58,260 nt of DNA from Psammoneis japonica (taxonomy: Eukaryota). This document shows, one piece after another, positions 1 to 35,500 of this stretch (position 1 is its first letter; each line of letters begins with the position of its first letter). Both the position numbers and the translations under genes were made by a program. The stretch is from NCBI GenBank assembly GCA_008632985.1, contig QPGO01000314.1, forward strand, positions 1-58,260, read 5' to 3'. The notes beneath the pieces were generated by a model that worked only from the letters and a program-made list of their open reading frames with translations, was not told the origin of the DNA and searched no databases.

Positions 1-19
1 ATCATGGCATCATGTGTCC

Positions 20-435
20 ATAGAGAGCAATGAAAAAGAAGTGAAAAACAAGTGCCACTTGACTTACAAAACATGGCATTGCTGCACTGCAATGTTTGGT
101 GTTGTTCAATCCATCACCACTTCTCCAATCAACTTGCCACTGCTCCAAATTCCATTGCTCCAGTTTTTACCCTCATGGTGAAATGGGAAAGGAGCAGGCA
201 TTTGACTAAATGACTCTGACAACACTTGCAAAATCCCCAAAGCCAAGGCAAGAATTTCCACCATGAAAAGCTTGACAAACAGAATGGCATCTTTTGCATC
301 CACCAAAGCACAAGGGGTTCCGGCAATGCCAACACTGACACCCAAGGCAATTTTTGTTAGGCCAACACAGAGTCTGGCCAAAAACATGCCATGGACTGCC
401 TGACAGTGTCCAACACAAACCCAATTTTCTGTCAA
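20..435 (-). pseudogene. Degraded copy of the 3' part and 3' UTR of the V-ATPase c'' (21 kDa proteolipid) gene
   Basis: ORF 106..435 (ENWVCVGHCQAVHGMF...[39 protein letters not shown]) aligns with the intact gene at 34340-34616 ([16 protein letters not shown]...[39 protein letters not shown]). Similarity continues into the 3' UTR. TA and CG sites are mostly replaced by CA/TG. Confidence 0.9.
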
Positions 436-585
436 TCAATGAAAAGCATTGGAGAAAGAAAGGGTTGGCTGTGCTTGCAGCAAGAAAGGCAATGGAGAAA
501 TGGTGGCAGCACAAGAGGACTTTGAACAAACCCAACAAGCAAAAACAGCATCACAAACAAGAAGTGTGCTGACAGAACACTCATC

Positions 586-1702
586 TTGATGCTGCCAGTG
601 CTTCTTGCACACTTGCAGATGAAAAGAATGCCAAAGAAGCTGGCAAAAGGAGGACTCCAAAACCCTCATTGACTGGCGGTTTTGCAGCCACAAATTGATG
701 AGAGATGGTCCACTGTGGTTGCATGTGAGCAAGTGGGGACAATGCCAGCATTGTTGTGCCACCATTTCTGGCATGGGAGTGGTGCAATCTGAGCCTGTGT
801 CTCCTCTGCCAGGACAGTGGCAGATGGATGGCAGTGCAGGAGATGTGTGAAAACAAGTGGCTGTGTTTGGTTGAGAAAATGAGCACCTTTGAAATGAAGC
901 TCTCTGCAAGAGCAAGCTGAGCTTTCTTTTGAAATCATGAGAAAGCAGGGCAGTCATTGATGCTGCCAGTGCTTCTTGCACACTTGCAGATGAAAAGAAT
1001 GCCAAAGAAGCTGGCACAAGGAGGACTCCAAAACCCTCATTGACTGGTGGTTTTGCAGCCACAAATTGATGAGAGATGGTCCACTGTGGTTGCATGTGAG
1101 CAAGTGGGGACAATGCCAGCATTGTTGTGCCACCATTTCTGGCATGGGAGTGGTGCAATCTGAGCCTGTGCCTCCTCTGCCAGGACAGTGGCAGATGGAT
1201 GGCAGTGCAGAAGATGTGTGAAAACAAGTGGCTGTGTTTGGTTGAGAAAATGAGCACCTTTGAAATGAAGCTCTCTGCAAGAGCAAGCTGAGCTTTCTTT
1301 TGAAATCATGAGAAAGCAGGGCAGTCATTGATGCTGCCAGTGCTTCTTGCACACTTGCAGATGAAAAGAATGCCAAAGAAGCTGGCAAAAGGAGGACTCC
1401 AAAACCCTCATTGACTGGTGGTTTTGCAGCCACAAATTGATGAGAGATGGTCCACTGTGGTTGCATGTGAGCAAGTGGGGACAATGCCAGCATTGTTGTG
1501 CCACCATTTCTGGCATGGGAGTGGTGCAATCTGAGCCTGTGCCTCCTCTGCCAGGACAGTGGCAGATGGATGGCAGTGCAGAAGATGTGTGAAAACAAGT
1601 GGCTGTGTTTGGTTGAGAAAATGAGCACCTTTGAAATGAAGCTCTCTGCAAGAGCAAGCTGAGCTTTCTTTTGAAATCATGAGAAAGCAGGGCAGTCATT
1701 GA
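586..1702. repeat. Tandem repeat, 3 x 371 bp, near-identical
   Basis: Units start at 586, 957 and 1328 (TTGATGCTGCCAGTG...), and the ORF track repeats with 371-bp offsets. Copies differ by a handful of substitutions; TTGA microhomology is present at the junctions. Confidence 0.97.
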
Positions 1703-2666
1703 AGGTTCTTTGTCTTTTTGGGAGCTCTGTTGAGAGTCACCATGGCAGCTGCAGGAACTGTGGTGCTTTTCTGCCATGAAAAACAAGCCATCAATGCTTG
1801 CAAGAATTGCCAGTGCACCTTCCCCCCCCCAAGAACATGGTTGCCTGCCACTCTGCCTGTGCGGTGCTGGTCTCCTGCTGCTGCAACTCTGGGGTTGCCA
1901 TCAACTCTCTTTGCAGATGTGTGCAACCAGCAAGCAAGCCTTGTTGCATGGCAAAGCTGCTGCTGATTTGTTTGGCACTTCAGCACCCTTGTCATCAAGA
2001 AGTGGATGCCATCAACTGGAATTTTCAAATGGAGACATTGCTGCAGCAAAAGAAATGCAGTGCTCCAACCCTGGTTCAGTGACCCCCATCAAACAGGAAT
2101 TGCTGGACACAAGCTGCTTGCAACACAAGTCTGTTTTTCATCAAAATGGTGGGGGTGACAGCAGTGGGGAGAAATTGGCCATGCCCAGGTGTTTGAAGTG
2201 TGCCTGCAAATGAAATCATTTGGCTCTCTGACACAGCATCAGGGGAGACATTTTTTGGGTTGTCTGCTTTTTGGAGATGATGCCATGGGTGACAAGCATT
2301 CAAGAGCTGCTCAATTTTTTGATGCTGCCATGAATGTTCACCCTGCATCCAATTTGGCAAGACTTTGGTTGTTGGCCAAGCTGGCTGCAACAAACATTTG
2401 GTGTTTTGGTGTCCCCAAGCAACTGGCAGCTTGGAGCTGCAGCTGCTGCCATCTGGAGCAAGTGGGGGCAACTCCAGTGGAGGCAAAGGCTCCGCATGTT
2501 GCAAGTGTGATTTTTCATCTTTGCAGCGGGGTCCATTGGGTGGCCCAGCCAGTGGAGTTGTCTGCAGAATGCTTTGTTTGGAGTTTCTGCACCAGGACAC
2601 CTCAGCAGCAGCTTGTTGTTCACAGCTGTGTGTGCACACTGTGTGGCAGAACAACAGTGCGAAGAC
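1703..2666. other. Unidentified TpA/CpG-depleted sequence (old repeat or dead gene), interrupted by the Copia insertion and continuing at 9785-11079
   Basis: Composition only. The Copia TSD AAGAG joins the two flanks. No motif recognised. Confidence 0.5.
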
Positions 2667-2671
2667 AAGAG

Positions 2672-2947
2672 TGACAGAAATTGAAGGCAAATGGCAAGAA
2701 TTCAAACAACAACTCCTTGCTGCTGTCTAAATGGCAGATGAGTCTCCGCTCAGAGACCGTTGCAGGAGCCGAAAGACGTGCAAGTCGGTGCAATCGGGCT
2801 GCTGTCATCATTCTTGTGAGCCTTGTGGCTCGAAAGCAAACCACATCGCGCGTGAACGCGCGGAACTAAAGCACACAAAACTGTGCGCGGTAAACTAAAC
2901 AGCGCGCGATGCTTCACGCGCATCCAAATCCTGTTCAAATCCTGTCA
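2672..2947 (-). repeat. 3' LTR of Copia element
   Basis: Direct repeat of 9504-9779 with TG...CA termini; preceded on the minus strand by the purine tract at 2948-2953. Confidence 0.97.
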
Positions 2948-5900
2948 CTCCCCAGTTTGCTTGAGGAGCCACAGAAACAGATTCGACTTCGGATGGAATG
3001 AAGTTCCAGAACATGAGGGGGCGGAGAAGGTCCCAGATTTGGGAGTGACCCCAATGCTTGCTGAGAATGTCAGCAGGGTTGTGGGAGCCTTCGATGAAGT
3101 GGAACTCAAGGCAACCAGAGGCAATTGCCTCACGCACACGGTGAAACGACAGTGCGGTGTGTCGCTTGTGTAACTTGGAGTGCGGGATGGTGGCACTGTC
3201 TACAACCGACTTGTTGTCACCGAACATGTAACTGACATTACGGATTGGGACGCCAAGGCAGCGCAGGGTGATGCGCAGGTCGATGATCTGCTCAACACAG
3301 TTCCTTGCGGCAACAAATTCAGATCCACAGGTTGCAGTCTCCACGGTGGCTTGTTTCTTGGAGAACCAATCAGCCGGGAATTTGTTGAGGAAGTGGAGCA
3401 TTCCCATGACAGAGCGTCCGGTGAGCATGCAATGGCACAAGTTTGCATCGACGCAGTGGGTGGTGGTGACGAACTTGCCAAGGGGCGGTGGAGCGTCCTT
3501 CGGGATCATCTCTTCTGCTTCACCACACACGGAATGCATCCATTCATGGGCCGGAGCAGGGAGATCCGAACAGTCGGGCTCTTCCGTGCGAACGCGGAGA
3601 GCACCGTGTCGCATCTTGGAGAGGTGCCCACAGACGCGTTTGGCACGATCCAAGTGGCCTTGACGGGGCGCAGCTCGGAAGCTAGAGAGTGACATGACAG
3701 CCGTGGCAACGTCAATTCGACCAAGGGACACTGCCCATTGGAGTGAACCAACAAGAGACTGGAACTTGTGAATGCCATCGGGTCCCAGCAGTTCGGAAGT
3801 GTCCAGCTCGGGGTGGTCACCCTTCTCCAGAGGTGACAGGGCGTTGGTGGCAGGTTTCTCCCCAAACAGTCGGGCGCAGCTGTCGACCATGCGCTCGATG
3901 TACTTGCGCGGAGACAGGCACAAGGTTCCGTCGGGGTCCCGGGAAAAGTCGCAACCCAGATGGAACTCAATGGGTCCCGCACCCTTGAGCTTGAACTTGT
4001 GCTTTTCCGTGAGAGTGTCGACGAAAGATTGAGGGTCCTTCATGGCAATGGCGAGGTCATCCACACAAACGAAAAATGTGTTCACAGTGGTCGCCGTTCC
4101 TGCGCATCCAAATGTCGGGTTCGGCGCGGCAGGGGAAGAAGCCTTCAGCTCGCAGGCAGTCGGCGAAGCGCTCGTGCCAGCGGAGACCGGAGCTGCGCAG
4201 TCCATGCAGTGCCTCATGGATGACAAGGATGTGTCCTTCGAGTTTGCCAAATTCGGGTCCAGCTACAATGCAAAGCTTCTCCTTGGTGGTGGCTTCAAGG
4301 TGGGCATTGCCAATGTCTGTGGCCCATGTCTCCAGCTCGTTGAGTTCGGCCAGGAAAATCATCAGCCGAAGGCCACGGAGGGAGACTGCTCCGGAGTAGA
4401 CACTGTCGACAGGTACGTCCGTGAGGTGCCCGTCGGCTACGAGTCGTGCCTTGTGGCGACCGTCGTGTTTCACGTCGCACACCAGGTGCACTCGGATCTT
4501 CTTGTGTCCCGCAGGAGGAGTGGAAGACTTGAAGGGCCCGCAGTCATGGAAGACTTCGTATTCGTCGAGTTGGTCCATCTCGAGATTAGTTGCGTCTCCC
4601 CACTTGCGGTTGCCGTTGCGTTCGTCTAGTGACATGGCGTGTTTGCAGTTCCAGGGAACTTCGCATCCGTGCTTGCAGCGAGGTGCAGTGCGGAAGGAGC
4701 GAAGCTTGGCTTGGTTGGCCATGCGAAATGGCTTCTTTTGGCGCCTCGCGATAGTGCGGAACCGCTTCCAGCCATCCGTGTCGAGGAGTCCGTTCTCTCG
4801 TGCACAGATGGCACAGGTGACGGGGTCGTCCTTGGCGATGATGGCAAGAGGCTCGGACATGATCTCCCCACTTTCCCACCCAAGCATGATGTTGTAGCTT
4901 GAGCCTTTCCAGGTTGGGTCGTGAGGCTTCAGAGGTCCTTCGTGTGACACGATGCGTCGAAATTTCCAAATGGTGGTGTCTTCGTCTTCTTGCTCAATGT
5001 GATTCATGATGTCATTGCAGGCAAGGACTTCCTCGTATTCGTCATTGTTGACAGAGCAGACGAACTTAGTGAGCTCGGGATTGCCGTTCACTTTCCATTC
5101 GTGGTCTTCGACGGCCTTGACGATGCGAGCTCTGTGGCGTTGTCCATCCTCTTGTGGCTGCATGAGGAAGGTGCGTCCAATGATGTCTTGCGGATCGAAA
5201 ACTGGCATCTTGGGTGTCCTGATCTCCCCATCAGGAGAATCGACGGGGTTGTCGTCATGGCAAGATTTGATGATGGGTTCAGGTGGCTCCCCATCAGGAG
5301 GATCAAGACGCAGGTTTCGAACGGCAGGATCGGGGGTGGCAGAGCGAACGTTGGACCGGCAGAGGATCTTCTGAGTCTCGTCAGACAGGATCTTGAAGGT
5401 CATCTGGTGGCCGACGTGCTCAGCAATGCCAACGAAGCGTCCACGCAACTCACGGGATTCGGACGGCCAATCGGAGTCATCGAGGTGGAAGCACACTGGT
5501 TCCCACCAGTGAAAGCGAAGCAATGGGCTGATGTCCGGGGTGGATCCAGTGAGAGTCTCGAGGGGCGTGCGCCAGTGGAGACGTGGGGATGCTGTGTGGT
5601 TGAGCATGAAGCACATGCACATGAGCGCCAGCAGCCATGTGTGGGCGGGCGAACCAAAACGGTCCATGACAGTGTTTGCCATGTGCTTCACGGTCTGGTG
5701 TCGACGCTCGGCAAAGTTTTGGTGTTGCTGGTGAGGCTCACTTTGCCAGCTGGAGATGAAGAGGGCGCGCAGGATCCCGAGCACTTTGTTGCTGATCTCA
5801 ACTTGAGCACGGTCGCCAATGAGTTTGGATGGGGCACCACGTTCACTGATCTGATCCTCGAGTGTGTTGACAAACTCTTTGTCCGTCTCAGTGCCGTAGA

Positions 5901-8564
5901 CGTCAGTGACGGTAGACTCGTGCCAACAACAGTTGGGCGCTGGTGCAACCAGAGTCGACGGCCGGGGTGTCGGCACAAACGGTGTCAGTGGCGACAGGCT
6001 CATTGCGGTGGTGTGCATTAAGGGCGGGGTTGGGTGATTTGCAGGCCTTGCGAAGGTGTGCACCGGCGGGCATGCGGGCGCACTGCGTGGTGCAGTCAAA
6101 AGTGCGACGGACCGCATCAGCAGGTAGGAAGCCAAAGCAAGGCCGAAGAGACTCGAAGGGGGGGTCCTTGGGCTGTACAGTGCGCTCTGGAGGTGGAACG
6201 TCATCGCCCTTGGGGTCAATCGCATGCAGATGACACTCGTAGAACACGTCGTCGTTCGGAATGAGGTGATCATCGAGGGCGGACGCGTGATCGGTAGACA
6301 AGGAAGCGGACAAGATGGTCTCGTTGACAACGACACGGTGACGGCAGTTGCCGCATTCGTCAAATGGGTTGGCAGTGGGATCGTCCTGTGGGTCAGAGAT
6401 CGCGTCGTGCCACTGGTCGTCGTCAGTGACAGAGTGATCGAGGACGGAAGGGTCCCATGTGTCATCACCAGTGAGGATGACATGGGGCAGGGTGTCCCAT
6501 TCGGCGTCAGTGCAAGGTCGCATGGCAACATGAGGCAGGCCAGCCTTGATGTCAATGGGGATGACATAGCCATCAGGAGTGGCAATGCGTTGCAAGCCGT
6601 TGGGCACCTTGACAGAGCGATCGTTGACATCCTGTTTGTGCCATTCGAGCTGGCCGCAGGAATGGATGGTCTTGCCCTTTCCCATGCATGCGCACTGATG
6701 GAGGATGGTGATGACGGGACCACGCTGGGTCTCAATGACGGCACCAGCGGTGACAATGGGGATGTCCACCAATTGATGATCGTCAATGCCCTGAACGTCG
6801 ACTTGGCGAGAGGTGCGTGCGATGACGCGAACGTCGTCGCCAGCAATGCCGCCGTTGGCCCCACGATCGACTAGAGCGCCAGTGCGTGTGGAGCGATGAG
6901 CAGAGGCAGAGCAAATGACATTGTGGTTGTCAACGCGGCGGCAAGTGCGGCCGCCAAGTTCTGTGTCATCTGCAGGAGCAGGCGAGGTAGAGGGAGCGGC
7001 GGATGGGCCCGGTCGACCAGCGTTGGGGGGTTGGTTAGGAGACAACAGGCGTTGCAGATCACCGGGTGGCAGTGGCTTGCGCTTGGTGAGGTGCGCCAGG
7101 ATGGGATTGTCCGAAGTGGCGTCCACATGTGCAGCGGAGTCACCACAGTCAGCAGGAGTCGTGTTGGACAAGTTGACATCACCGTCACTCCCAAGGTGTT
7201 GGTCGTGAAGGTTGGCCGTAACAGACTCATGGCAGTTGCTGGCTCGCGGGTTGCGGGGAGGCGGACGAGAGTGCTCAAGGATGATCGCCTTGGAGGAATC
7301 GGGCAACGAATCCCAGAGCCGTTGGTGGTCGGGAGGGAGACGTCTCCATTGGACACCGGTGAGGCTGGGACCGCGGGTGCAGGCAGCATTGGCTTGAAGG
7401 ACGTCAACGTCGCTGTCAATGTCGTAGAACACATCATCGGACGGTTCCTCGGAGCAGACGTCGTGTGCGCACATGGCGCATCGGGGAGCTCGAGGTGTCG
7501 TCTTGGGTTGAAACGTGCTGTCGTGCTGAGCTGCCGCGGAGAGGAGCAAGCCACAGCATTGATCGCATGTGAGGCTCTTGCCACTCTGCGTGCGATGCTG
7601 ATCAGCTTGGTTCTTGACAGCACGGAGTTCCTCGACAGGGTGCACGGCATTCTCGAGCATGACGCGCTTCTGTCCTTCAGAGAAGTGGTCACTGGCGGGG
7701 ATGAGTGCCTCGCACTTGCGCAACTGATCTTGCCAATGAAGGATGAACCCGTGGGTCGGACCTTTCCAAGTGCCATCACCAAGACGTGCGGTGGTGAGGT
7801 GCGTGAGCAGGGTGGAGGACTCGACAGATGCACGGGTGGAGGCAAGCGCGTGCTCAGACAAGGAGCGGTGGACGGTCTGTGCGTCAGAAGACCCCACATT
7901 TTCGCGAATGAGAGCCTTGCCCTTGTCGGTGAGAAGGATGCGTTCGAAGACGGCGAACATGTGCTTTTGCTGTTCAGCAAAGAGCAGTTTGTCTTCGGGG
8001 CTGGTCGGTTTGTACGACGAGTCTAGAATGCACTCGACGTCTTGGGCACGGGCTTGTGCCACAAGTGAGGTGTGCCAAGTGTGCCACTGCTTGTCGGATT
8101 TGAGAGCCGTGAAAGCGGTGGGATCACGCTTGATGCCTCGCTTGAAGTCTCGCACCGGGTCGCGTGCCTTGGTCGGGTTGGTGACATGTGGGAGGTGCAA
8201 GGGGTGAGCTGCCGATGGACACAGAGGACATGCAGTCCGGGCTGAGACGGCAGGCAAGGAACTCGTCATGCGTGAACAAAGAGGAGTCGTTGGCAACGTC
8301 AAGACCTTTGTGTGCTTTGACAATGTACAGGCCAACTGGTGCTGCTAACATGTTCTTATAACCACGGGGCAAAGGGATTGCATTAGTGCCGTTGTCGCAC
8401 TCAAGCGAGTCGATTTGGGACGGCATGAACGTGAACAGTTCCTGATGCGAGTCCGTGCCGTCTTGGGCCAAAGCCAAACGAAGAGGACTCCCAGCACCTT
8501 GGGCAAGCACGGTTCCAACAACGTGCTCGAAACCATCGGTTTGTTGCTGACGAGTGAGAACCAT
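2948..8564 (-). pseudogene. Copia gag-pol polyprotein, frameshifted and Tyr-depleted
   Basis: Pieced together from ORFs 8124..8594 (ATG at 8564), 5903..8335, 4057..6864 and 2895..4250, with frameshifts near 8200, 5930 and 4075. The catalytic YVDD reads CVDD. Confidence 0.93.
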
Positions 8565-9503
8565 GGTAGACAAAAGTGGTGTCAGGACAATCAATTCTGG
8601 TTGGGAAGCAAAGGCAGACTCGAAACTTGGGTGAGAATGGACTTGACTTGAAATGGACTTGACTTGAAATCTTGAACTGTCTTAAAATCAGAAGTCGCCG
8701 GGCTTTGTCACCCCGTTCGTTGTCAAGTGCTAAACTTCCTGTCCGGTCCGTAGAGTTGTGCCGGCACGTCCGAACCCGCAGCCAGTGGCGCTTTGGGTTG
8801 CTTACGAGCGGAGTAGCGGGTTGTAAACCCCTGCAGGCAAGCTGACTGGAGGTGGACAAGACCCCCGAACCGTTCTCATTTTATGTCGGTTGGATTTCCC
8901 GATCAGGCTGGCCAGTTGACGCAGGCGCCAGGTGCTGTGGACGAACGAACAAACGCGGGAAAGCACCCTCGCCCCAACGCAGGCTGCAATCACGGCTGCT
9001 TGCTCTCACAGTCGTCCTCGTGGACCTGGTGGAACTGTGGAGCACCAGCAGTCCGGGGCAGATCAGGCACAATGGACTCGGTGTGCTTGCAGAGTGGCAG
9101 CAAAACCGCAGTCCGAAGAGTGGGCACAGGTTCTTGGCCGTGAAGACATGTGTGCACATGTGTGTCTTCAGCGAGGGAGATCCTTGAACATGCAGGGTTC
9201 TTGACCGTTGACCGATGAATGGGCACACCAAGGGATGAGGATCAAGGACAGACTTGGATGTGACCGTTGAATGCATGTCTTCAACGATCAAAGGCAGTGT
9301 GATCAATCCAGATGTCCAGCGGCAAGGAGACTTGACGGTGACGTTAACTTCCTGCCGATGCCCTGGTGTTGAATGCGCGCAGACTTGCCGATGCATGCAG
9401 GACACACACGGAGGTCCACGCAGAATTGAAGTGGCATCGTTGGCAAATCAACGACGACGATGGCGGTTGCTCAATGGGTTGACAATGAGCAAGACTGTCA
9501 ATC

Positions 9504-9779
9504 TGACAGAAATTGAAGGCAAATGGCAAGAATTCAAACAACAACTCCTTGCTGCTGTCTAAATGGCAGATGAGTCTCCGCTCAGAGACCGTTGCAGGAG
9601 CCGAAAGACGTGCAAGTCGGCACAATCGGGCTGCTGTTGTTGTTCTTGTGAGCCTTGTGGCTCGAAAGCAAACTGCATCGCGCGTGAACGCGCGGAACTA
9701 AAGCACACAAAACTGTGCGCGGTAAACTGAACAGCGTGCGATGCTTCGCGCGCATCCAAATCCTGTTCAAATCCTGTCA
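9504..9779 (-). repeat. 5' LTR of Copia element
   Basis: Direct repeat of 2672-2947, followed by TSD AAGAG. The internal flank on the minus strand reads GATTGACAGTC..., not a canonical TGG-type PBS. Confidence 0.97.
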
Positions 9780-11079
9780 AAGAGAGTTTTCACTTTTGTT
9801 CAACGTTGACAAGGAGTCAACAAGGTCAAATTTTTTTGATGTGGCAGAGGCAATGTTTGGCTGCTCTGTTTGTTTGAGTGCAGAGAAACACATCTTGTTG
9901 AGCTGTGGGTCAGATTCTGTGGCAAGGGTGGTGGCAATGGAGTGACAGATTGCACCATTTTCCATTTGCCAACGGAAATTCTTTTTTTGAGGAAATGGAT
10001 TCCTTTTCCCAGAGCACACCATTTCTTGCTGTGCATCTTTTGTTTCTTTTGCCTCCAGCTGCAATGGCAAATGGCAGTGCTTGTCAGTCCTTTTGCGGGG
10101 CCCACACAATGTAAAATGCAGAAAAAGAGAAAGACAATTGCTGTGAGTGATGATGATCCTTTGTTTGCCATCAGCAAGCTGACCGCTGAAGGCAAGGACA
10201 GCGTTTTTGTGCAAGGGCAAGAGACGCCAATGCCACAATGAAGCAAAACAGCAAACTGGTGCAAAAAATGCGCGCACTTCTGAGCAGAGGAGCTGTTTGC
10301 CAAGTTGGCTTAAATTGGGTGCCAGTGCAATTGACAACCTGGATCTACAAAAGCAGTTGGCTGTCCCATGTCACACAATTTGCTTTGATGTCATTGGCAT
10401 GATGCGCGTGTGATGTGGCAAATGCAACAGCAAACAGCGCAATCTGTCACTCTGATGCACACCCCCCCCCTTGTTTTGGCATTGCAGCAAGATTCTCCAA
10501 GATTCCCTGGGATCTCACCACCTTTTGATGGGCTCTTCCACTGGAAGTGTGAGCTCCCGGGGAGCCACCGTGGGCGCCACTTTGTCGTGCATGTGCTGCA
10601 GACATGCACACAAATTTGTGCGTTGGCGCTTCCCCTCTCACACCTTTCTGTGCCTGCTGCATGCCAGGACATGCAGAGCCACGTGCACCCCCACGCAAAA
10701 CATTGCTCTGGCGTTGTGTCAACACACAAGCAACAGAGCATCTTTGAAGATGGCCAAGGCAAGTGCAGAAGCTTGCAAGGCCAACAAATGTGGTGGGCAC
10801 AATTGTGCGTGACCATGCACGCAACACAGTGTGGGTTGTTTGTCACTGTTGTGCCTCGTCACAACAAATGCGAGCCACACGAGTCATCTGGAGCAAAGGC
10901 CAAGGCCACAGCAGAGCCCTGTGTGCTCAAAACAAATGTGGCTGACTCGCTGTTGTTGTCCACATTTTCCCTCTCCTGTCACAAGGGGCTGCTTTGTGTC
11001 AGCACATCAGCCGTGGTCATTGCCAGCAGTGAGTGCAGCAAGCTGGCGGTCGTGGGGGGTGGGGAGGGCAAAAGCGCCC

Positions 11080-14454: not shown

Positions 14455-15263
14455 AAACAATGCATTTTGCATTTCATCCTTTTGCATGCATCAATCACTC
14501 TGTATTTTTTGTAGTTCATTTAGTTGCAGACTGTGCATCGCGTGCATTGTCAATTGTGTCAGAGCATTTTTCTCGCTTGTCGCTTGTCCAACCTGACGGA
14601 GTCTGTCTGTCTGTGCACTTTTTGAGACCTTCAATTCCAACCACGAACCATCGCAACTCTGTCGCTGAAACATCCAACACAACAAAACACAGCAACAGCA
14701 AATGAAAATGATTCCGGTGGAAAGAGTGTTGGTTGTGTGTGTTGAACCAGCAAGTCAGTGCCGCCAAAAGGGAATCCTGTGAGGCTTCCTGTGCTGCTCG
14801 TCGCACTTGCCTTGGTTTCTTGCAGTGGCTGTGGGTTGCCTGGAAGTTGTTGATGCAAACTTCAAACTTGCAATGTGACAGGTGCCCAGTGTGGCCAAAT
14901 GCAAAAATTGTGTGAACCAAATGATTCACTTCAAAGAGTGAGATGAACTGAAAGGTGAGAGAGATCGACAACGACAAGATGCTGATTGCAAGGAGTCGCG
15001 CCAATTTGATCGTGATGAGTCACCAAATCTGCCACATCAGGATTCACAGCATCTTTTCTTCAACTCATCTGGATTTCTTGTGTTTCCTGTGATCTGAGTG
15101 TTTGAACACACTCCTGCTGCTTGTGTTGATGTTCTGCTGACCAGACAGGTCCGGCTTGTCTTGAGGAGGGGAGATGGTGCTCCCTCTGTCTCACATCATT
15201 GCTGACATCTTTCAAATCGGCAATTCGCAAGCTGGAGCACTGTCCATTGTCAGAGCCATCAAT

Positions 15264-16420
15264 TGTCACAGAGACTCCAATGTGTCACAGGAGTGACCTC
15301 ACAAACTGACACCCCCACACACTGGGAGCATCAAAAGCCTGGCAAAACAGGTTTGAAGATGTTCCAGTGCAAACAGGCAGTGGTGTGAGAGCAATGAAAA
15401 CAGACAGCACAGAGAAAAGAACCATCAAAACACAATGCAGCAAACCTCTGAAACTTCAAAACACTTCCACAATGATGGATCAAAGAGCAAAGCATTGAGA
15501 TGCAAGGCAGGTGTCCGGGGTGGTGGCACAATGTCAAACCAGGAGGCCTGCCAGGATGGCAACAGGAGCGGCAATCAGGGGGGCAACCAGAACTGGCCCA
15601 ACTCAACTGGCAATTGGGAGGCCGGTTGGGACAACTCCAATCCATTAAAACATCTTTGCAGAGGATCTCATCTGGCTCACACAAATCTCACATTGGAGCA
15701 GCACCCCCCTGCAATGGGTGTGGCGTGTGACATTGGCAAAGAGCATGAGCAAGATGCAACAACAGAATCCTGGATCAAGGACTCACTTGCTCTGTCAAAC
15801 TCTTGCAAACCAAGCATGAAAACAAGATGACATTTGACCACAGCACCTCAATGCAAGTGCCACTGACACATGGGGCAATTGTCCGTGGTGTTCACACGTG
15901 TTGAGTCTCATGTGCATAGAAACAGTGTCACACACCACGCGATCTTTGGAAGATGAGGATGAAAAAGGTGCCAGTTGTTGCTGCAATGCATTTGATGCCA
16001 TTGCAGCAACCAAGCACACCAGCTCACATTAGAAACACTCAAGTGTGGCATTGGAAAACACGTGACAGTGGTGGCATTGCAAGACATCTGTCACTGCACA
16101 TGGCAAAGTGATCTGAAAGATGACTTGCCAGCACTGTGTCATCTGCAGGTGGAAACAGCACCACGTCCTGCACAGTCTTTGGTTCATGAAACAAAAACAA
16201 ATGTGCAAGAAGTGTGCAACAATTTTGAGGCCATTGCAATCAACAGAGCACCCAAGTTCACATTGAAAATGCTCAGGGGTGGCATTGAAATGCTTTTGCA
16301 AAAGAGGCTTGGTTGCGTGGGAAGGTTTCAGAGGTGCCATGTGTCAGCAGAGGTCAACGTGGGCTCACAACCTGGATGGTGGAGACTCCAATGCATCACC
16401 GGAGTGACCTCTTGCACAGA
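15264..16420 (-). mobile_element. Probable Copia-type LTR element remnant (LTR end plus PBS)
   Basis: GAGACTCCAAT...GGAGTGACCTC occurs at 15271, at 16382 and split at 44670/50362. On the minus strand at 16361-16374 it is followed by (CA)GGTTGTGAGCCC, resembling the Copia GGTTATG(G/A)GCCC PBS with TA->TG. 16185-16410 is homologous to 44077-44688. Confidence 0.5.
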
Positions 16421-17282
16421 CAAATTGTGTCGCCAAACATGTGTGATGCACCATGCACACATCCCACAGAACAGGCAAAGCAAGGTCTCTCTTTCTTGAC
16501 TTCTTCTTGCTGTCCTGATCTCATCAACCAGGTCCACAATCCAGCCATTGACTCTCTCAGGATTCAAATCAAACAACTCCACGCCATTGTGGAGCCACTT
16601 GTTCAACTGGTCTGCATGGTTGATGGTGTCATGGTGGAAGAATGATGCCAACTTCCTTGCATCACAAGTGATGCCATCTGTGTCCCTCATGAGCCCACAA
16701 TGACTCCCTGCAGTGTCCGGCAGACCGGGGCTTTCAATGAGCTTCACAAGGGGACAACACACCCCATCCTTGTCCATGCCACAGGCAGGAAAACAGATGT
16801 TCAACAACCTGGGTGAGATGTCAACATCACTCTTGTTGAGGGTCAATTGCAAATCATTGCCCATTAATCCAGTGGTGTGCTTTGCCATCATCAAGTTGTT
16901 TTTGAGACAACACAGCTCACCTTGCCTCCAGGCTTGGTGCCTCCCACAACATGACAACATTCCTTGGTCCTGTGTGCTCTGTCAGAACAACATTTGAACT
17001 CAGATGCTCTCCTTGGATCATCATGAATGGAGAAAATTGGTGCAGTGGTGGACACACACTTGAGTGCCTTGGAACTCCACAGTGGCAATTGCTTGAGCAC
17101 TCCATCAACTGGTGCCTGTTCTTCCATGGGTCTTGCCACAAACCCAAGGTTCTTGATCTGATTGGTGACAGAGAAATCAAGGTGCCAAATGATGAGTGCT
17201 CTAGACCACTTGCTGGCACACTCCTGATTGGTTTCCATCAGAGCAGTGCTTTTGTTGTGCTGACAGGGGTTGTTCTTGTTGG

Positions 17283-19990
17283 TTGGATGCCCCTGAACAT
17301 TTAACAGCCAACGACAGCCTTGCAGAGATCATCAGCTGTGTGAACAATGAGAAAGCCTTTGCAAACAAAGGCAGCAGCAAGAAGCAAGACAAGCAAAGGG
17401 AAAGCAATGCTCCTTCACCCCAATCTTCAAGACATTGTCATGGGAGTGGCAGCCAAGTGGATCCAGAGTCCAGGTGTCCGGCACACACCAATCATGACCA
17501 CAAGCGGAAGGGCTGTCAAGGTGGAGGCCAAAGCAATTGTCAAGGCAGAGGTTTGCAAGACCAAGGAGGTTGTGGCAACTTCCGAGGTCAAGGACGTGGT
17601 GTTTGTGGCAACCAAGGCAATTGTGGCAGCCAAGGTTGCGGCAACTGTCAAGGTCCCCAGAATTCTCAAGGTGGAGGATCCTGTTGTCAAAATCAAAATG
17701 GCGCACAAGCCAACCGTGACACCCAAGGCTGTAAAAATCTGGCTGGAGCAGCTCCTCCTGGTGACTGGCAAATGGAGTTGCACCATTTTGATTGAGAAGG
17801 GCCTCATGAGTTGTGAGGTGGAAATGGGTGCAACCAAGGTGGTTGTTTCCCTCCAGCCAGCAAGCATTGCATGTGTTGTTAGATTCAGGAGGCACTGACA
17901 CCCTTGTGCATTCTCATGTTTCACCCAAGGGAGCCAATCCAACTGTGAATGATGAGGGGTGGCTGAGTTTTCAGACAGCAGCTGGGCATTGTGAATCATC
18001 CCAATGTGCCATCATGAAGAATCTGGTGCCACCCGCATTTGACAAGTCCAAACAAGTTGATGGCATTGCTGCTCAAGCTTTTGACTCTCCGTGCAAACAT
18101 GATGTGAGACATTGAGCCAAGAAGGCTGTCTTTCCAAGGCCAGCACAACACTTGATTTTTGGTTTGGAGTCATGAAGTGGTTGGATGATTTGATCCCAAT
18201 GAAGCAACCCAATCATTGGAATCAAGTTCATGGCTGGTTGGATGTGCTGGACAACCACAAAGAGGATGAAGATGATGAGGACCTCCAGGGTCAAGCTTTC
18301 ATCATGCCAGATGTCAAGTGTGAGAGAAGGTGTCAACTGTGAAAGTGACACAATTGCAAACTCATTTGACCCAGGACCAACGTGACAAGCTTCACACCAT
18401 GCTTGAAAAGCACAAAACCCTCTTTGATGGGACGGTTGGCAAACATCTGCATGAAACCAATTTTTGGAAGTTGATCCTGGTGCCATTCCCTTTCACTCTA
18501 AAGCCCACAAAGCACCAAAGAGAGATGAGGCTGTTTTTAAGAAGGAACTGCACAACATCTTTGCAACGTTGGCACACTGGAATCAGCAGGACCAACAGAG
18601 TGGGTGGCCGGAACCTTCCCAACACCCAAAAAGGATGGACAAGTGGGATGTGTGTCCAACTTCCAAGAATTGAACAAGGTGCTCAAGTGGAAGGTGTCCT
18701 CCACACAATTTACACCAACAATTGGGGTGCAAGTTTTTAACCAAACTGGACCTCACCATGTTCTGCTGTCACATCGAGCTTGACAAAGAATCCAAGGATT
18801 TGCATGCTGTTGTTGCTCTGCTTGGAAAGTTCCAACATTGTCAACCAGCCATGGGTCTGAAAACTTCTCCCAACATTGCTCAAACTGTCATTGAGAAAGT
18901 GTCAAACAAACTTGATGTCAAAGCTTGTGTTGATGACATTGCTCAATTTGATGACTTGTTTGACACTCACATGCAGCACCGACTTGACAAGTTGCAGTCC
19001 AGACTGGAAGAGAATGACCTCAAGGTCAATCCACTCAAGTGTGAGTGGTGCGTCCAAGAGACGGATGTTCTGGGTCATTGGCTCACACCTGCAGGAGCTT
19101 GACCATGGAAGAAAAAGGTCAAAGCAGTTCTGCAGATGCAACCTCCTCAGAATGTGATGCAGCTGCAATCTTTCATTGGTGCAGCATCCTGTTGTCACAA
19201 CATGTGGCCTCATTGCTCTCATGCACTTGCTCCACTTACAAAGTCAACCAGCAAGAGCAAGTTGGAATGGACCCCAGAGTGTCAGAAAGCCTTTGAAGAC
19301 ATGAAAACATTGATGTTGGACAACACCCTTTGGGTCCACCCAAACCACAACAACTCCTCCAACTGTCAGATGGGTGCAGCGATCATGCAAGAAGGGAAGC
19401 CGGCAGCACATTGGTCTCAGAAGCTCAGTGCAGTGCAGCAAAATCACTCCACTGTTGAGAAAGAGCTCCTTGCTGTGGCAATGTGTTGCAAAGAATTCCG
19501 CACCATGTTGCTTGGGGCTGATTGTGCTGTTTTCACTGACCACAAAAACCTCACCTTTTGTGTGCTCAACTCTCAACAAATGCTCAGGTTGAGACTCTTT
19601 TTGGAGGACTTTGCTCTGACCTTCAAGCATGTTGACAGCAAGGATGACTCAATGGCAGATTGTTGTTCCCAATTGCCTTGCATTGAACCTCCAATGGAAG
19701 GAAATTGTGCTCCCAATCAGGGCAAATTGATGGATTTCAAGGCAATTGACACTGCCACACCACCTCATGAAGAGAAACTTGACAACCCAGATCACGTGTC
19801 TTGTTTTTCCTTTTGTTGTGAAGAACCATCTCATTTCCACTCCTCCTTTGTTGATGATCCTGATCTGTGTGAATCATTTTTGAACTGTCCCTCACTTGAC
19901 AAAATGCAAAATCCCACAACCATGCAGTCAATTTAAGAGCACCAATTTGTCGACATGGAATTGAGTGACATGCAACACAACAAAACACAA
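17283..19990 (+). mobile_element. Ty3/Gypsy retrotransposon relic (gag end, protease, RT, RNase H; integrase not seen)
   Basis: Protease LLDSG (~17880); RT KFLTKLDL...AMGLKTSPNIAQ...CVDDI...LKVNPLKCEW...LGHWLTP; RNase H QMGAAIMQEGKP...EKELLA...FTDHKNL...MADCCSQLP. Many stops and frameshifts. Confidence 0.9.
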
Positions 19991-20049
19991 AACCCAAATT
20001 CATTTTTTAAGGTGCTGCCACACTTCTGCTCTGCAACTCTGGCAAACAA

Positions 20050-23000
20050 GCTAACCCACACCCCCAGTGCACTTAACTGTGGCAGGGGAATGCAGCAATC
20101 AGCCAAGATCAGCCATCACCATCAGGGGATGCCACGCCAAAGCAACTTGCAACAGTGCAAGTGCCAAGCAAGGCCGGTCATTTTGCCTTGTGAATGCTTG
20201 ATTTAAACACAGGTCCAACAATTGCCAACCAATTGCAAAGATGGTGGGTGGAATGGGAAAGGTGTTCATCAACGGAGTCAAAAAGAGCTGCTCAATCTTT
20301 GGCCAAACGGTCATTTGAACAAGAGTGAGTGGCCTTGACCTCTGCCTCTGTGTCATGACATTGTGCCAATTTGCTGGTTTCTGAATCATGTGCGTGAGTT
20401 GATTCATTGTGTTGATCCCACAATGCCTGCTGTTGAGACCATGTGAAGTTGCCAATGGTTGCTGCTCAGTCAACTCTAGAGATGTCACAGTCCAAACTTT
20501 CAACCTTTTTCAAATGCATGAGGTGCACCCTGTTCCAGCAGGCAGAGAATCAGCCATTGAAAATGAGCCTCCAACCAATCTGTTCCTGTGCATGAAATTT
20601 TTCCAAAATGCTGTGGTGAAGCTTGTCAGCACAGACTGTGTCTTCAAGAAACCAAGCCTCTGATGCAGCAAGCAGAAAGTTGCACATGGGAGGAGAAGTG
20701 TGAATGTCATCACATTTCTTCTGTAAACCTTGAAGGAAGGCACAATGCCATGCTTCATTGTGGGGGCACCACAGGATGTGGTCTCCATCCTCCATTGGAT
20801 GCTGGCAGTGAATGCAACAATCAGGTCTGATGGGATTGCACCAGCGGGCAACAAATCCTGCACCAGTTTGATGGCACTCATTTTTTGAGTGATGTTTTGT
20901 GACACAAGTTTAGAGTGCACCGGCCCATCAATGAGTTGGAATGCTTCATCTGTCCAAGTGCACTTCTCTTTCATGTGTGCAAGAAGAACTGGAAATGAGG
21001 CTTTGCATTGAAGTGCCGGTTTGAACTTGGAGTGCACGGAAGCATTTTGAACAGTGAGGTTGACGGAGCAGTGTGGCACATGAGGAGCAACCGACACAGA
21101 CCCAGGACATTCCCCTTGATGTTGACCTGCAATGCGGTCAGCTCAAACACTCAACTGTGCTGGAAGATGCAAGGATTTGCAGGGAACATTGTCATCTTGA
21201 TGGCACTTGATCCAGTGAATCACAACCTGTGTGCATGATTGCTTGGAGTGGAGAGAGTCAACTGAGTGGAAAATTTCATTCAATGTGTCCCAATCTGCTG
21301 ACACAGTGTCAGCAGCATGAGATTGATGGCAGCAGTCATGTTGCACATTGGAGGGATTGTCTTCTGTGGAGATTGGGATGGAATGGAAGTTGCTCTTGCA
21401 TTGCAAACAACAGCGGAGTTGTTGCAGCATGGGTCCATTCCCTGTGACAATTTTGTCTGACAAAACTCCATCACTCTGAGAACAAACAGAAGAAAGGAGA
21501 GCATCCCATGTGCCTCTGCACAGCAAGATGATGGGCCACAGTCAAATGCTGGACCAGCACAATCGACTGGGATGTTTCTGTCAATCACAAGCATCCATCT
21601 GAAGGTGGCATTGAAGCCAAGAACAGACCTGTCACTTGCTGCTGATGTGTGGTGAAGCCCAAGAATCTCTGCCAGTTTGAAACTGAACATGTTGAGGGAG
21701 ACCTTCACAAACAAAGATGATTCACACAGAGGCAGGGACCATGGCCAGTCTTGAAAATCAGAGGGGACAGAAACCACAGGAGACAGATCAAACAGGGAAC
21801 CGATGCCTCAGATGCGCCATCAACTGTCTTCAATGGTGCCAACCATGACTGGTGATGCCAAGGGGGACAAATCAAGAACAGTCTCAAGAGGATCAATGAC
21901 AGGAGCAATGCCACGGGTTGCTGGGAAGATTTGAAAGCCTGCCAGAGATCTCATGTGTAAACATCCTTTGACTGGTTCATCGTGCACAGGAAATTTCATC
22001 CACATCTCTGCAGACAGGATGGCCAAGAGCCCAATGGGCTGCATGACTCTAGATCCTTTCCTCTGCTGACAACACTGCAAAACCGCTGCCACTGTTTCCA
22101 GGCATGTGAGGACAGAAGAGCTTGTTCCACCAGGTTCAACATGGATGAACTGCTTGAGATGGAGGGCTCACCCAAGAACATTTGACGATCCAAAAACTGG
22201 CCATCTGGCAAGGCCACACCAGAAACGATGAGGATGTTGAGGCAAAGGCAGCAGCAATTCACCCAGCGCATTTGTCAATGGGAGAACATTCCCAAGTCTA
22301 GAACCACGTCCATGATGTGTTGATTGTTGTTTCACTGGAGGGGAAGTGCACCTGAGTCATCCAAATCAAAACATGCATCCACTCTGGACAAAAACAATCA
22401 GAGAGACATGAACCATTTAGACTCAGAGTGAAGCAACTTGGGATGAACATCTTTCAGGAAGCCAACCCCCGTGCTGAGATGGAACTGGATCCATGAAACC
22501 CCAACATGAGGCAACATTGCGGGCTGGCCAATCCCACACCAGTTGGACAGAAGCTGCGCCACTTGACCAATGCCTTGTTCCACATCTGAGGACCAAAATC
22601 CACCACCACTGAGAATGCAACAAGGGCCAAAAAGGACGTCCTAATTGGCACTGCAATCATGCCTGCATTTGGCAAATGTTGTGCACACAGCTTTTTGTTG
22701 AATCTCGAGAAGCTCCTTTGGAGCAAAATGGGAATTTGGGAGAGCACACATCACACATGCTAAATGGCAAGCAAAATGGGGAGCACAAGCTTTGCTGCTG
22801 TCGAGGGAGCAAGATCAGAGAAAGAGAGCAATGTCATCACTCTTTTTCTCAAGGGCTTCACAGAGAGTTTTTTGTGAACCTGCTGGAGACTTGTGGTGCC
22901 CTGGGGTCATGCGGGACATGTGGGCAGATGACTGAACACTGGACCAGGAATGTGGTTGATTGGTGGAGGAAATGTCAATGATGATGGCATCATTGCATGC

Positions 23001-26000: not shown

Positions 26001-27400
26001 CCACAATTTTTGCTGGCAGTGCAAGGTCAAAAAACACCAAATCAAAACCACAGGTTGGTTGCAAACATCAACAAACAAACAATCTAGCTTGTCAAATGAT
26101 GAAAACTTGGAAGACACACCAGTGGGGCCTTTGCCTTCAGCAAAGGAAAGAGCATCAGATTTTTTGACAAAATCAATCAACTCTTTGTGCTTTGCCTCCA
26201 GAAGGCTGTGCAAGTTAGCCACATGAGGCTTTTTGCATTTGGCGTGGGTGCGCAACTGAACCCACAAATCAAGAAGAAGGAACACACATGCTCCTCAGTC
26301 TTTGACTCAGGCAACTTCTTTGCCAAGACAGGAATGGCAGGAGGCTGACAAGGGTTGCTGGAGATGACGAGCATGCCTGGCTTCTTGCAGACTTCAATTT
26401 CATCTGCTGTTGGGTCAGGAGGCAACTCAGGCTTCTCAGCAGGAGATGCAGTTGGAGCAGGAAAATCCGGTGCATGCTCAGATGCCATTGAGGTGGCATC
26501 AGACTTCTCTGTGAGAGCTGGCAAAGTGCGCACTTGCTTCCAAAGGTTCCTGGAGGGCCATTGCCAATGTTGGTCTCCAAGTCTTGAATGGACTGGTTTG
26601 TCAGATGCTTGGAGATGTCAAGATCCCTGATGCTGACATCTTGCAAAGTGCAAACAGCTTCACAACATTGGGGGGTGCCGCCAAGCTGAGCATGTTTGTG
26701 GCAATTTCACAGGTGTTGCCATTGCTTGCAATCTGCTGCTTCCCAATCTCACCAAAAGCAACAGAGTGGCAGTGGGCAAGCTGCTGCCAGATGGTGTTGT
26801 CAAAGTTCTTGACAAGAGCGCTGAATGCAAACCTGAAGTTGCTCAAGGCTGCAATGACGTCTGACGAGTCCTGGACATGACCATGAGCATGCAAGACAGA
26901 TTTCTTGATTGACTCTGTGGTCATGGTTTTGAAGTCAGCACTGCTGCACTCCTGCCCTTCCTCAATGATCTTGGTTTGTTCCAAAGTGTCCATGAGCAGA
27001 GTGAGAAAGTCAAGCATGTTGATCTTGGATAAAAAGGTCATCACAGATGCATTTGGAGGTGCGTCCGCAAACTTGAAGCAGCAAATGCCATCAGCAAATG
27101 CCTTGTTGATGCAAGCAGGGCAAAGAGTGACTGCTTGATTGAAGACATTCATGGTCTTGATGCCATTGAGGGTGGTGGCAGCAATCTCATCAATGAGGCA
27201 AGCCTTCTTGGTCTCACTCAATTCTTGGAGGGCCTCAACAAAGACTTGCTTGAGCTGTCCCAGTGTGACAGCATCAGATCCCACTGCCTTGTGGCAAAAC
27301 ATGAAAGAAAAACAAGCCTGGATGTCAGCAGCTCTCTTCTTGAGGTCCTTGTCCATCTTGGATTGGGTGCCTTGACTTGGACAGTGATGGGAGCTTGTGC
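20050..27400 (-). mobile_element. Non-LTR retrotransposon (LINE; APE-RT-RNase H-Zn knuckle, Ambal-like) relic with putative ORF1 upstream
   Basis: APE motifs (SEVCLDT, CKPGS, DPLGHWS, GSKRLDC, SDHH) at 24100-24900. RT motifs (KICRLHVIHIYKAD, PICGNGQGSGNSP, GCVDDT) at 23100-23760. RNase H (SSCCAEAHG, HWIKCHQDD) at 21180-21650. EDGDHILWC at ~20780. Ends and ORF1 (25150-27400) are approximate. Confidence 0.85.
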
Positions 27401-29260: not shown

Positions 29261-29380
29261 CTCTACCGGCATCTCATTGCATTGTGGTGAAATCGGGTTC
29301 GCGTATCGCATCTTTATCTCGTTTCTCGTTCGTCGTTCGTGCCGAAAAAAAAAACGTAAGATGACTTTTTATCAATCACC

Positions 29381-31231: not shown

Positions 31232-31289
31232 ATTTGTATTTGCATTTCATGATTTTGTCTCTTCCGTTGATTATGTTTGTTGAAAAATC

Positions 31290-31646: not shown

Positions 31647-31727
31647 CTAGCGCCCGATGCATGCAATCACATTGAGAAAATAACAACACTTCCACATATA
31701 CTCTAAAATAACAACTACTACTGTTCT

Positions 31728-35387: not shown

Positions 35388-35500
35388 TATTTGGAGTAGG
35401 AGTTGGTTATGAAGAAGAGGCGATGGATTGAACAACACTGTGAACTACAATATGCATGCCATGATCGTAAGAAAAGCATTATAGATGCTGGCTTTTGTTG
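35388..35500 (+). repeat. Additional diverged copy of the V-ATPase 3' UTR
   Basis: TATTTGGAGTAGGAGT...GAAGAAGAGGCGATGGATTGAAC...AGATGCTGGCTTTTGTT parallels 34628-34755. Confidence 0.75.

Follow-up and report, generated by a model that had tools for sequence, protein, structure and literature searches.

Signature of probable local A:T to G:C hypermutation at TpA in an integrated Ty1/Copia retrotransposon and neighbouring repeats of the diatom Psammoneis japonica

A stretch of 58,260 nucleotides (nt) from the diatom Psammoneis japonica (GenBank assembly GCA_008632985.1, contig QPGO01000314.1, positions 1 to 58,260 of the forward strand; the whole stretch is referred to as the window) carries, on its minus strand at positions 2672-9779, a complete Ty1/Copia long terminal repeat (LTR) retrotransposon that has lost most of its TpA (TA) dinucleotides and, with these, nearly all conserved tyrosine (Tyr) residues of its pol product. 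A preceding sequence-only reading, made without database searches, had described positions 2948-8564, beyond whose upper end (8564) the element extends, as an otherwise well-preserved Copia pol in which Tyr had been recoded to Cys or His. The analysis presented here supports this reading and indicates that it should be widened to a regional process, which affects all repeat blocks of the window and which acts after integration. We propose, with good confidence, that this process is a locally targeted A:T to G:C hypermutation at TpA, operating at the DNA level on integrated mobile DNA.

Replacement of Tyr was assessed, as the sequence-only reading had suggested, in an alignment with relatives, which comprised 61 proteins of at least 900 amino acids (aa) and was confined to the in-frame parts of the element. 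Among the 439 columns that were conserved (at least 80%), the element retains the family residue in 395, and the excess of substitutions falls on the Tyr columns. Only three of the 21 conserved Tyr residues are kept, while 11 have become Cys, four His, two Phe and one Trp, so that 15 of the 21 columns now carry Cys or His. In contrast to this, 26 of the 418 conserved non-Tyr columns have changed and 392 are kept (Fisher p = 2.8e-17 for Tyr versus other columns), which bears out both the near-complete loss of Tyr and the preservation of the remaining residues. The motifs that had been listed as altered (CVDD, DIGNAHLEA, EKLCI, ALHGL, HLVCDVK, GHKKI, PRCKHGCEVP, HCVDANLCH, ETATCGSEF, LRCLGVP and HWGHSQ) are all present in the minus-strand frames, and Tyr is the consensus residue of 30 relatives in ten of these 11 motifs; the exception is HLVCDVK, for which the consensus has Phe (HLVFDVK). 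Intact relatives carrying Cys or His at the same positions, which would have spoken against the recoding, were absent, as 28 normal relatives displayed no Cys and six His among 553 cells at the conserved Tyr columns. The overall composition of the protein is shifted in the same manner, with a Tyr content of 0.65% (4.18% in the relatives), a Cys content of 3.59% (1.20%) and a His content of 4.98% (3.38%). Additionally, two Tyr-depleted relatives were identified in the databases, of which P0038 (Tyr content 0.88%) has six His, four Cys and two Tyr at the conserved Tyr columns, and P0064 four His, four Cys and eight Tyr.

The polarity of these changes was set by the consensus of the protein family. 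At the conserved columns, 44 codon differences are explicable by a single step, and these comprise 21 conversions of TA to TG or CA, five CpG transitions, one transition of another kind and 17 transversions; 27 more codon changes, mostly located in out-of-frame overlaps, require several steps. The TA-type set includes 11 Tyr to Cys, four Tyr to His, three Val to Ala (all GTA to GCA) and one Ile to Met (ATA to ATG) changes, in addition to two Lys to Glu and one Ser to Gly changes at codon junctions where T is followed by A. Cys and His thus both occur, consistent with conversion of TA to TG as well as to CA, i.e. on both strands, and no pattern is apparent to the eye in the sequence in which they follow one another along the element. 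The collateral changes that had been predicted to accompany the loss of Tyr were recovered in part, since Val to Ala and Ile to Met were found while Leu to Ser or Pro was absent, 47 of the 49 conserved Leu residues being kept and the remaining two having changed to Ile and Met. The in-frame codon counts are low for ATA (0), TTA (1), CTA (4) and GTA (5), and for Tyr itself amount to one TAT and ten TAC; TAT survives less often than TAC. The replacement of Tyr (TAY codons) by Cys and His, which includes the change of the catalytic YVDD to CVDD, is predicted to inactivate the protein. As the conversion of TA removes TAA and TAG codons and never makes a stop, the reading frames would stay open even while the protein is inactivated.

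At the DNA level, positions 2948-8564 contain 37 TA where 252 are expected at an observed-to-expected ratio (o/e) of 1, equating to a TA o/e of 0.15, whereas CA (o/e 1.56) and TG (o/e 1.31) are in excess. CpG is abundant in the same span, as had been noted, with a CG o/e of 0.90, and depletion of CpG, the mark of methylation-deamination decay, is a feature of the older flanking blocks rather than of the element. The GC content of the element (0.576) exceeds that of its relatives (0.37-0.53). Of 80 metagenome loci encoding relatives, 78 exhibit a TA o/e of 0.49-1.00, the exceptions being L055 (0.06) and L068 (0.33); likewise, one-kb intervals with a TA o/e below 0.3 account for 3 of 778 in the loci of the relatives as opposed to 75 of 111 in the window. 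The Tyr- or TA-depleted P0038, P0064, L055 and L068 stem from other public datasets, indicating that the process is not confined to this assembly. The related loci L057, L078, L074, L064, L002, L003 and L024 have a CG o/e of 0.05-0.24 at a normal TA o/e (0.49-0.70). Such relatives, from which CpG has been erased while TA is normal, indicate that the two losses are separable, and in other hosts CpG decay proceeds without TA loss. Within the element, positions 8001-9000 (leader and start of gag) display a TA o/e of 0.30, compared to 0.07-0.20 in the rest.

The two LTRs of a single retrotransposon copy are identical at integration. Those of the present element differ at 11 nt, all of which lie within seven pyrimidine-purine (YpR) dinucleotides, with no differences elsewhere in the 276 nt; the seven comprise four CA/TG doublets, one TA/TG, one CG/TG and one CA/CG. 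Given the initial identity of the LTRs and the restriction of the differences to YpR, the conversions were made in chromosomal DNA following insertion, a CA/TG doublet being the expected look of two independent conversions of one ancestral TA. When two events are counted per doublet, nine TA-type events are observable in 552 nt, and approximately 17 events (~0.03 per nt) are estimated if hits in the same direction are equally common. For the internal region, an ancestral o/e equal to the median of the relatives (~0.68) would imply the loss of ~135 TA, or ~0.024 per nt. The density of events in the LTRs thus matches that of the internal region, so that action after integration can account for the whole load, and the element probably arrived with its tyrosines. 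In the absence of any non-YpR difference between the LTRs, conversion of TA would have outpaced background substitution by two or more orders of magnitude, and about 80% of the TA sites of the element were probably converted while the LTRs were still free of accumulated background substitutions. An LTR divergence of 4% provides no usable clock in such genomes.

Profiles of TA in one-kb and 100-bp bins revealed that the element is part of a mosaic. Normal blocks (12-14, 29-37, ~44.5, 51-53 and 55-58 kb) have a TA o/e of ~0.3-0.8 and a CG o/e near 1, whereas in depleted blocks the TA o/e falls to 0.00-0.26 and CA and TG mostly rise to 1.5-2.0 (one-kb bins), with sharp borders that are located within 100-300 nt. 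The depleted blocks form two classes, i.e. those that have retained CG (the Copia element and 45-51 kb) and those in which it has been erased to 0.02-0.2 (1-2.6, 15-28, 38-41 and 53-55 kb), and TA loss precedes CpG loss in the window. Within this window, depletion is confined to mobile or repeat DNA and host genes are spared. A suitable contrast is provided by a family of FG-GAP repeat genes, the first two paralogues of which are 78-89% identical over four matched segments of 168-300 nt. Their differences, 100 transitions and 88 transversions, form an ordinary spectrum, and their TA o/e values are 0.39 and 0.42. CA/TG doublets make up 30 of the 194 difference events between repeats of the depleted blocks, but only 5 of the 166 between host paralogues.

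The depleted bins still hold 170 TA in 38.6 kb, compared to 573 TA in 14.0 kb of normal bins, and these survivors lie mostly in YTAR contexts. Relative to the normal bins, TTAA is enriched 5.1-fold, CTAA and TTAG 3.8-fold and CTAG 2.7-fold among the surviving TA, while ATAT (0 versus 48) and ATAC (0 versus 53) have vanished and GTAT and CTAT are reduced to 0.23 and 0.10 of their normal share. When arranged by the 3' neighbour of the target A, the survival ratio is 0.32 for T, 0.66 for C, 1.59 for G and 2.09 for A, which suggests a conversion preference of T > C > G > A, as read from survivors and not from observed mutations. Such an order accounts for the severe loss of Tyr codons (TAY). The order of CA and TG along four depleted regions is random (runs-test z of 2.66, 0.15, -0.4 and 1.05), and strand-coordinated or processive clusters, which were considered, are consequently unsupported. 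The lack of strand-coordinated tracts argues against a processive single-strand enzyme and also against the misreading of a hemi-modified base.

Other copies of the family were present in four public runs (X1-X4), all of which derive from one sample of one study, perhaps the source of the assembly, and which were compared as contigs and not as raw reads; none of the public runs found to contain the element was an RNA dataset. In X1, 14,323 contigs match the element region, and 3,885 of the contigs of this run are at least 99% like the window. The X1 contigs differ from the window copy at 297 transition and 31 transversion places, with ~70-80 places per transition type, which fits ~150 variable YpR sites. 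Detail for 40 of the 343 variant rows corresponds to 35 events, 27 of which are YpR interchanges; in ten of these the other copies keep CpG, in six TA is kept by the window copy only and in five by the other copies, while five are CA/TG doublets and one is a change of CG to TG.

These observations may be accommodated by a scenario in which a full-length and intact Ty1/Copia element, having recently entered a diatom chromosome within repeats that were by then degraded, would have been hit in place by local hypermutation at the DNA level. Conversion of TpA to TpG or CpA, i.e. an A:T to G:C transition at TpA on either strand, would strike mobile and repetitive DNA and spare the neighbouring host genes, and a slower decay of CpG to TpG or CpA would later erase CpG in the older blocks. 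The sequence data establish the signature itself, its polarity in the coding part of the element, its timing after integration, its restriction to repeat blocks and its neighbour bias. We infer beyond this that the process is enzymatic, that it has a role in defence and that the silenced state of the DNA guides it. The likeliest agent would be a DNA-acting adenine deaminase of the TadA/ADAT type that is directed by this silenced state, the natural tRNA target of that type likewise being a U-A step. The A edited in tRNA by TadA and ADAT2/3 is, as far as is known, invariably the one that follows U33, and early DNA base editors derived from TadA preferred YAC. Both preferences match the T-A-Y context seen here, and thereby lend some support to the involvement of a deaminase.

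A number of points weigh against this interpretation or limit its reach. TpA is palindromic, and the sequence alone fits deamination of A as well as a lesion directed at T. A Pfam scan of open reading frames (ORFs) of the window, with a minimum length of 100-150 aa, detected no deaminase domain. The trigger may be the repetitive nature of the DNA, its foreignness or its chromatin state. Polarity is proven for the coding part of the element and is assumed in the other blocks. The 3' neighbour order, as stated, comes from survivors, and the 5' neighbour has no clear effect in the small sample of Tyr codons, where Y and R precede nine and six converted codons and seven and four surviving ones, respectively. 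Finally, X1-X4 represent a weak independent confirmation of the bases, and while their variants agree with mostly copy-specific conversion, this agreement is derived partly from tallies, with the detail covering 40 of the 343 rows.

Hypermutation of TpA to TpG or CpA has been described in integrated viral DNA of Bigelowiella natans (Mettrop et al. 2026, bioRxiv 10.64898/2026.01.13.699255). According to the accessible text of that preprint, 231 of 302 new substitutions in mutation-accumulation lines were located in two integrated viral regions. All but one of the 231 were A>G or T>C, and each of these 230 lay at TpA, at a rate ~1000 times the background and in some lines only. In the same genome, 124 clusters of windows poor in TpA and rich in CpA and TpG were reported, TpA-depleted coding sequences were enriched in reverse transcriptase (RT) and DDE domains, and a DNA-acting ADAT2-like adenosine deaminase was proposed by the authors. 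The two cases share A:T to G:C change at TpA on both strands, a loss of TpA with gain of CpA and TpG in adjacent 1-kb windows, an effect on foreign or mobile DNA and a rate orders of magnitude above background. They differ in the host, which is a chlorarachniophyte (Rhizaria) there and a diatom (stramenopile) here, and in the targets, which are giant-virus and virophage inserts there as opposed to LTR retrotransposons and anonymous repeats here. Furthermore, the giant-virus insert has a rho of 0.45, while the TA o/e is 0.00-0.15 over more than half of the 58-kb window; a neighbour preference of TAT > TAC > TAG > TAA is inferred here, whereas no statement of one was found in the preprint text; and the events were seen de novo there, whereas here they are deduced from sequence comparison. 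Diatoms are not mentioned in the accessible text of the preprint, and a full-text literature search, which had most subscription journals outside its reach, retrieved no account of such TpA-specific hypermutation for any diatom. The signature is of the same kind as in B. natans, for which it has so far been reported only in that preprint, and is new here for a diatom.

Repeat-induced point mutation (RIP) of fungi is similar in that it operates on DNA, is transition-only and dinucleotide-specific, inactivates mobile elements in place, spares genes and makes compositional blocks. The direction is the opposite, however: RIP converts CpA and TpG to TpA, thereby enriching TA, lowering GC and creating TAA and TAG stops, whereas here TA is destroyed, GC is raised, CA and TG are in excess, stops are never created and the pol frames are stop-free. 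RIP mutations are also strand-coordinated, in contrast to the random order of CA and TG here. Induction by repeats as in RIP was considered and is unsupported, in that no dependence on duplication is apparent and the FG-GAP paralogues, at 78-89% identity, are untouched, although these are perhaps too diverged to act as a trigger.

The alternative that comes closest to the proposed process retains its signature, targeting and timing and replaces adenine by thymine chemistry: the T of TpA in silenced DNA would be modified (e.g. to 5-hydroxymethyluracil (5hmU) by an enzyme of the TET/JBP type) and would mispair with G, giving T>C. At a palindromic TpA this produces exactly the observed CA and TG outcomes, and the palindromic neighbour pattern, in which ATAT and ATAC/GTAT are most sensitive, fits either base. 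Work on dinoflagellates places 5hmU preferentially at TpA, and the loss of CpG from the older blocks might be viewed in the same light, as 5-methylcytosine and thymine are both 5-methylpyrimidines. We nevertheless regard thymine modification as unlikely, since nothing in the analysis points to such a base in diatoms and since the losses of CpG and TA are separable, with the element at CG 0.90 and TA 0.15 and many relatives at CG 0.05-0.25 with normal TA. Functional recoding, in which an active Copia lineage would avoid UpA and Tyr codons under selection (e.g. to escape an RNA-targeting restriction factor), would be in keeping with stop-free frames and well-conserved non-Tyr residues. The absence of stops is, however, an automatic result of TA to TG or CA conversion under the genetic code and no sign of selection. 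Moreover, the catalytic YVDD is now CVDD, 18 of the 21 conserved Tyr are lost, two frameshifts are present, the non-coding LTRs and unrelated degraded blocks share the TA loss, and the resolution of a given site into CA or TG differs between copies, which together render this explanation so improbable that it may practically be set aside.

An origin of the changes prior to integration, in which ADAR-like or ADAT-like enzymes would have edited the replication intermediates (RNA or cDNA) of the retrotransposon and the edits would then have been copied into the genome, would suit a retroelement. The animal ADAR and APOBEC systems indeed provide examples of deaminase-style hypermutation against mobile or viral nucleic acid, and A>G change with a preference for U on the 5' side of the edited A is a hallmark of ADAR (Mettrop et al. 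2026). The substrates of these enzymes are RNA or single-stranded cDNA prior to integration, whereas here integrated DNA is affected, and APOBEC gives C>T rather than A>G. To our knowledge, ADARs are restricted to animals. The 3' neighbour preference of ADAR is for G, and the 3' T preference seen here is opposite to it. An excess of A>G on the sense strand (11 Tyr to Cys versus four Tyr to His) is non-significant (binomial p = 0.12), and strand asymmetry was dropped as a candidate feature, as the strands are hit about equally in P0038 (six His versus four Cys) and P0064 (four versus four). Furthermore, the LTRs differ at five TA-type sites, four of them CA/TG doublets, with an event density that covers the whole load, and editing before integration is therefore very unlikely. 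An artefact of sequencing or assembly, whether a misread non-canonical base at TpA of silenced DNA or the collapse of repeat copies into a chimaeric consensus, might be suspected from the N gaps in the assembly, the very large number of family copies (as counted in X1) and the single sample behind the runs. It is, however, difficult to reconcile with gene blocks of normal composition on the same scaffold and with sharp borders; a misread hemi-modified base predicts strand-coordinated runs of CA or TG, of which the runs tests show none, and a consensus drawn from many copies would bring back TA and Tyr, wherever part of the copies retain these, rather than remove them. Moreover, thousands of X1 contigs match the window to 99% or more, unrelated datasets also contain relatives depleted in Tyr and the same signature has been validated in mutation-accumulation lines of B. 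natans (Mettrop et al. 2026), which makes an artefact extremely unlikely.

The element itself is delimited by two intact and identical copies of the target-site duplication AAGAG, which bracket the LTR pair (Table 1). Three long stop-free frames (5903-8344, 4057-6870 and 2895-4262) occupy positions 2895-8344 of the minus strand, and pol is spread over three frames through two 1-nt frameshifts (at ~5920 and ~4075). At exactly these places, the public runs yield contigs from other copies with 1-base deletions (4072-4076) and 1-base insertions (5919-5927), indicating that the frameshifts are specific to the window copy or represent assembly errors. The copy lacks features expected of an autonomous element, i.e. 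an uninterrupted gag-pol and the catalytic YxDD, in view of these two frameshifts, the CVDD motif and the 18 replaced Tyr residues. Pfam identified RVT_2 in frame 2 (E = 1.7e-11; 44.7 bits, cut-off 31.6) and, weakly and under the curated cut-off, in frame 3 (E = 0.0069). No Pfam family was matched at E <= 0.01 by the 813-aa gag-protease-integrase frame, nor was a protease, integrase (rve) or RNase H domain found anywhere in the element at this threshold, and the putative order protease, integrase, RT and RNase H is derived from collinear alignment alone, in which relatives of ~1000 aa span from the region upstream of RT to the C-terminus. A homology search with the in-frame part of frame 2 returned 714 homologues, the best of which was 64% identical; nearly all of the best 120 of these 714 carry PF07727, and one named match is from Fistulifera solaris. 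No canonical primer-binding site was recognised by eye beside the 5' LTR, and neither blastn nor tblastn, the latter run both with the pol of the element itself and with ten relatives, detected a second copy or fragment of the element in the window. With the diatom CoDi elements (Maumus et al. 2009, PMC2806351) the element shares the Ty1/Copia architecture, an RVT_2 RT and diatom relatives. Putatively active CoDi copies described there contain at most one stop or frameshift, whereas the window copy appears to be inactivated through loss of Tyr; a term search of the text of that paper retrieved no mention of dinucleotide-specific mutation.

Table 1. Coordinates of the Ty1/Copia element, of the depleted and normal blocks of the window and of TA-poor relatives elsewhere
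Feature	Position	Strand	Remarks
Target-site duplication AAGAG, low-coordinate side	2667..2671	.	Flank ...acaagag, then TGACAG
3' LTR, 276 nt, termini TGACAG...CTGTCA	2672..2947	-	96% identity to 9504-9779; 4 TA (all CTAA/GTAA), 20 CG
pol frame 3: end of RT (CVDD for YVDD) and RNase H	2898..4262	-	In frame from ~4076 downwards; aligned to 61 relatives
pol frame 2: C-terminal part of integrase and N-terminal two thirds of RT	4060..5949	-	In frame ~5922 to 4075
Frameshift, frames 2/3	4072..4076	-	Alignment puts frame change at 4075/4076
Frame 1: gag, protease, start of integrase; 813 stop-free codons	5906..8344	-	Last ~40 residues align to N-termini of relatives
Frameshift, frames 1/2	5919..5927	-	Frame 1 stop at 5903-5905; frame 2 homology from ~5922
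5' untranslated region and possible gag start	8345..9503	-	Least TA-depleted part of the element
5' LTR, 276 nt	9504..9779	-	Paired with 2672..2947
Target-site duplication AAGAG, high-coordinate side	9780..9784	.	CTGTCA, then aagag
Older repeat block, insertion target of the Copia element	1..2600	.	TA o/e 0.03, CG o/e 0.03
Large depleted block	14500..28700	.	TA o/e 0.02-0.14; CG o/e 0.13-0.21 over 15001-28000, ~0.8 at both edges
Ty3/Gypsy-type remnant, heavily degraded	RT 18674-19099; RNase H 19103-19933	+	RVT_1 E = 9e-13; RT_RNaseH E = 5e-17
TA- and CG-depleted block	37700..41300	.	Bin profiles
TA-depleted block keeping much CG, with N run	44900..50900	.	GC 0.53-0.59 apart from N-run bin
90-nt direct repeats bracketing the 45-51 kb block	44897-44986 and 50272-50361		94% identical, 5375 nt apart
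TA- and CG-depleted block	53000..54900	.	Bin profiles
Host-gene contrast block: FG-GAP repeat protein, HOOK, V-ATPase proteolipid	29360..37000	.	TA o/e 0.32-0.76, CG o/e ~1
FG-GAP repeat paralogues	12568-14451, 29360-31228, 35969-37683	+, +, -	N-terminal acidic region, one predicted membrane span
HOOK-domain coiled-coil protein gene	31731-33392	-	Normal composition
V-ATPase proteolipid subunit gene	33761-34613	+	At least one intron; normal composition
TA-poor Copia relatives in other datasets	L055:1-1168; L068:501-2000		TA o/e 0.06 and 0.33, respectively

The diatom nature of the host genes is reflected in the V-ATPase exon at 34254-34613, for which the best named matches are all diatoms (Amphora, Epithemia, Trieres, Seminavis, Pseudo-nitzschia, Nitzschia and Fragilariopsis), at identities of up to 93%. 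The 45-51 kb block with its bracketing direct repeats may be a second young LTR-like element; it has no Pfam match, and the same holds for most ORFs of the depleted blocks. Adjacent to it, positions 44200-44700 constitute a TA-rich island with up to ten or more TA per 100 nt, and a 244-nt stretch of this island recurs 1.5 kb away at 45726-45969, the two copies having 20 and 3 TA, respectively. At 14 sites of this pair TA stands against CA (seven) or TG (seven), with none in the reverse direction, which looks like a state before and after conversion but is unpolarised. Comparison of the TA-rich with the CA/TG copy in the repeat pairs D4 and D5 gave ratios of 14:0 and 6:0; these are suggestive but, in the absence of an outgroup, would also fit the reverse direction and were not used as proof.

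The findings have consequences for the annotation of such genomes. In the depleted DNA, TGA is the sole remaining stop, which explains why as many as 55 stop-to-stop frames with a length of 80 aa or more overlap 8 kb of the window. Gene finders would call spurious ORFs in the erased blocks at 1-2600, 15000-28000 and 38000-41000, where long open stretches are present in all six frames. A dead element that looks well preserved may thus distort gene prediction, measures of mobile-element activity and the dating of LTRs. A natural DNA adenine-editing activity, if such is the agent, would possibly be of interest for base-editing technology, and genomes with and without the signature could be compared for deaminase and dioxygenase genes, candidates from which are open to test in a transformable diatom. 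We consider the chances to be about even that diatoms, or at any rate the present species, possess a dedicated TpA-editing defence on integrated mobile DNA, which favours TAT and TAC, operates near saturation as a mirror image of RIP, kills proteins through the loss of tyrosine and probably employs a DNA-acting relative of tRNA adenosine deaminases; together with B. natans, such a defence would be widespread among stramenopiles, alveolates and rhizarians, whether ancient or convergent. If confirmed at near saturation on diatom retrotransposons, the signature would be no curiosity of a single species.

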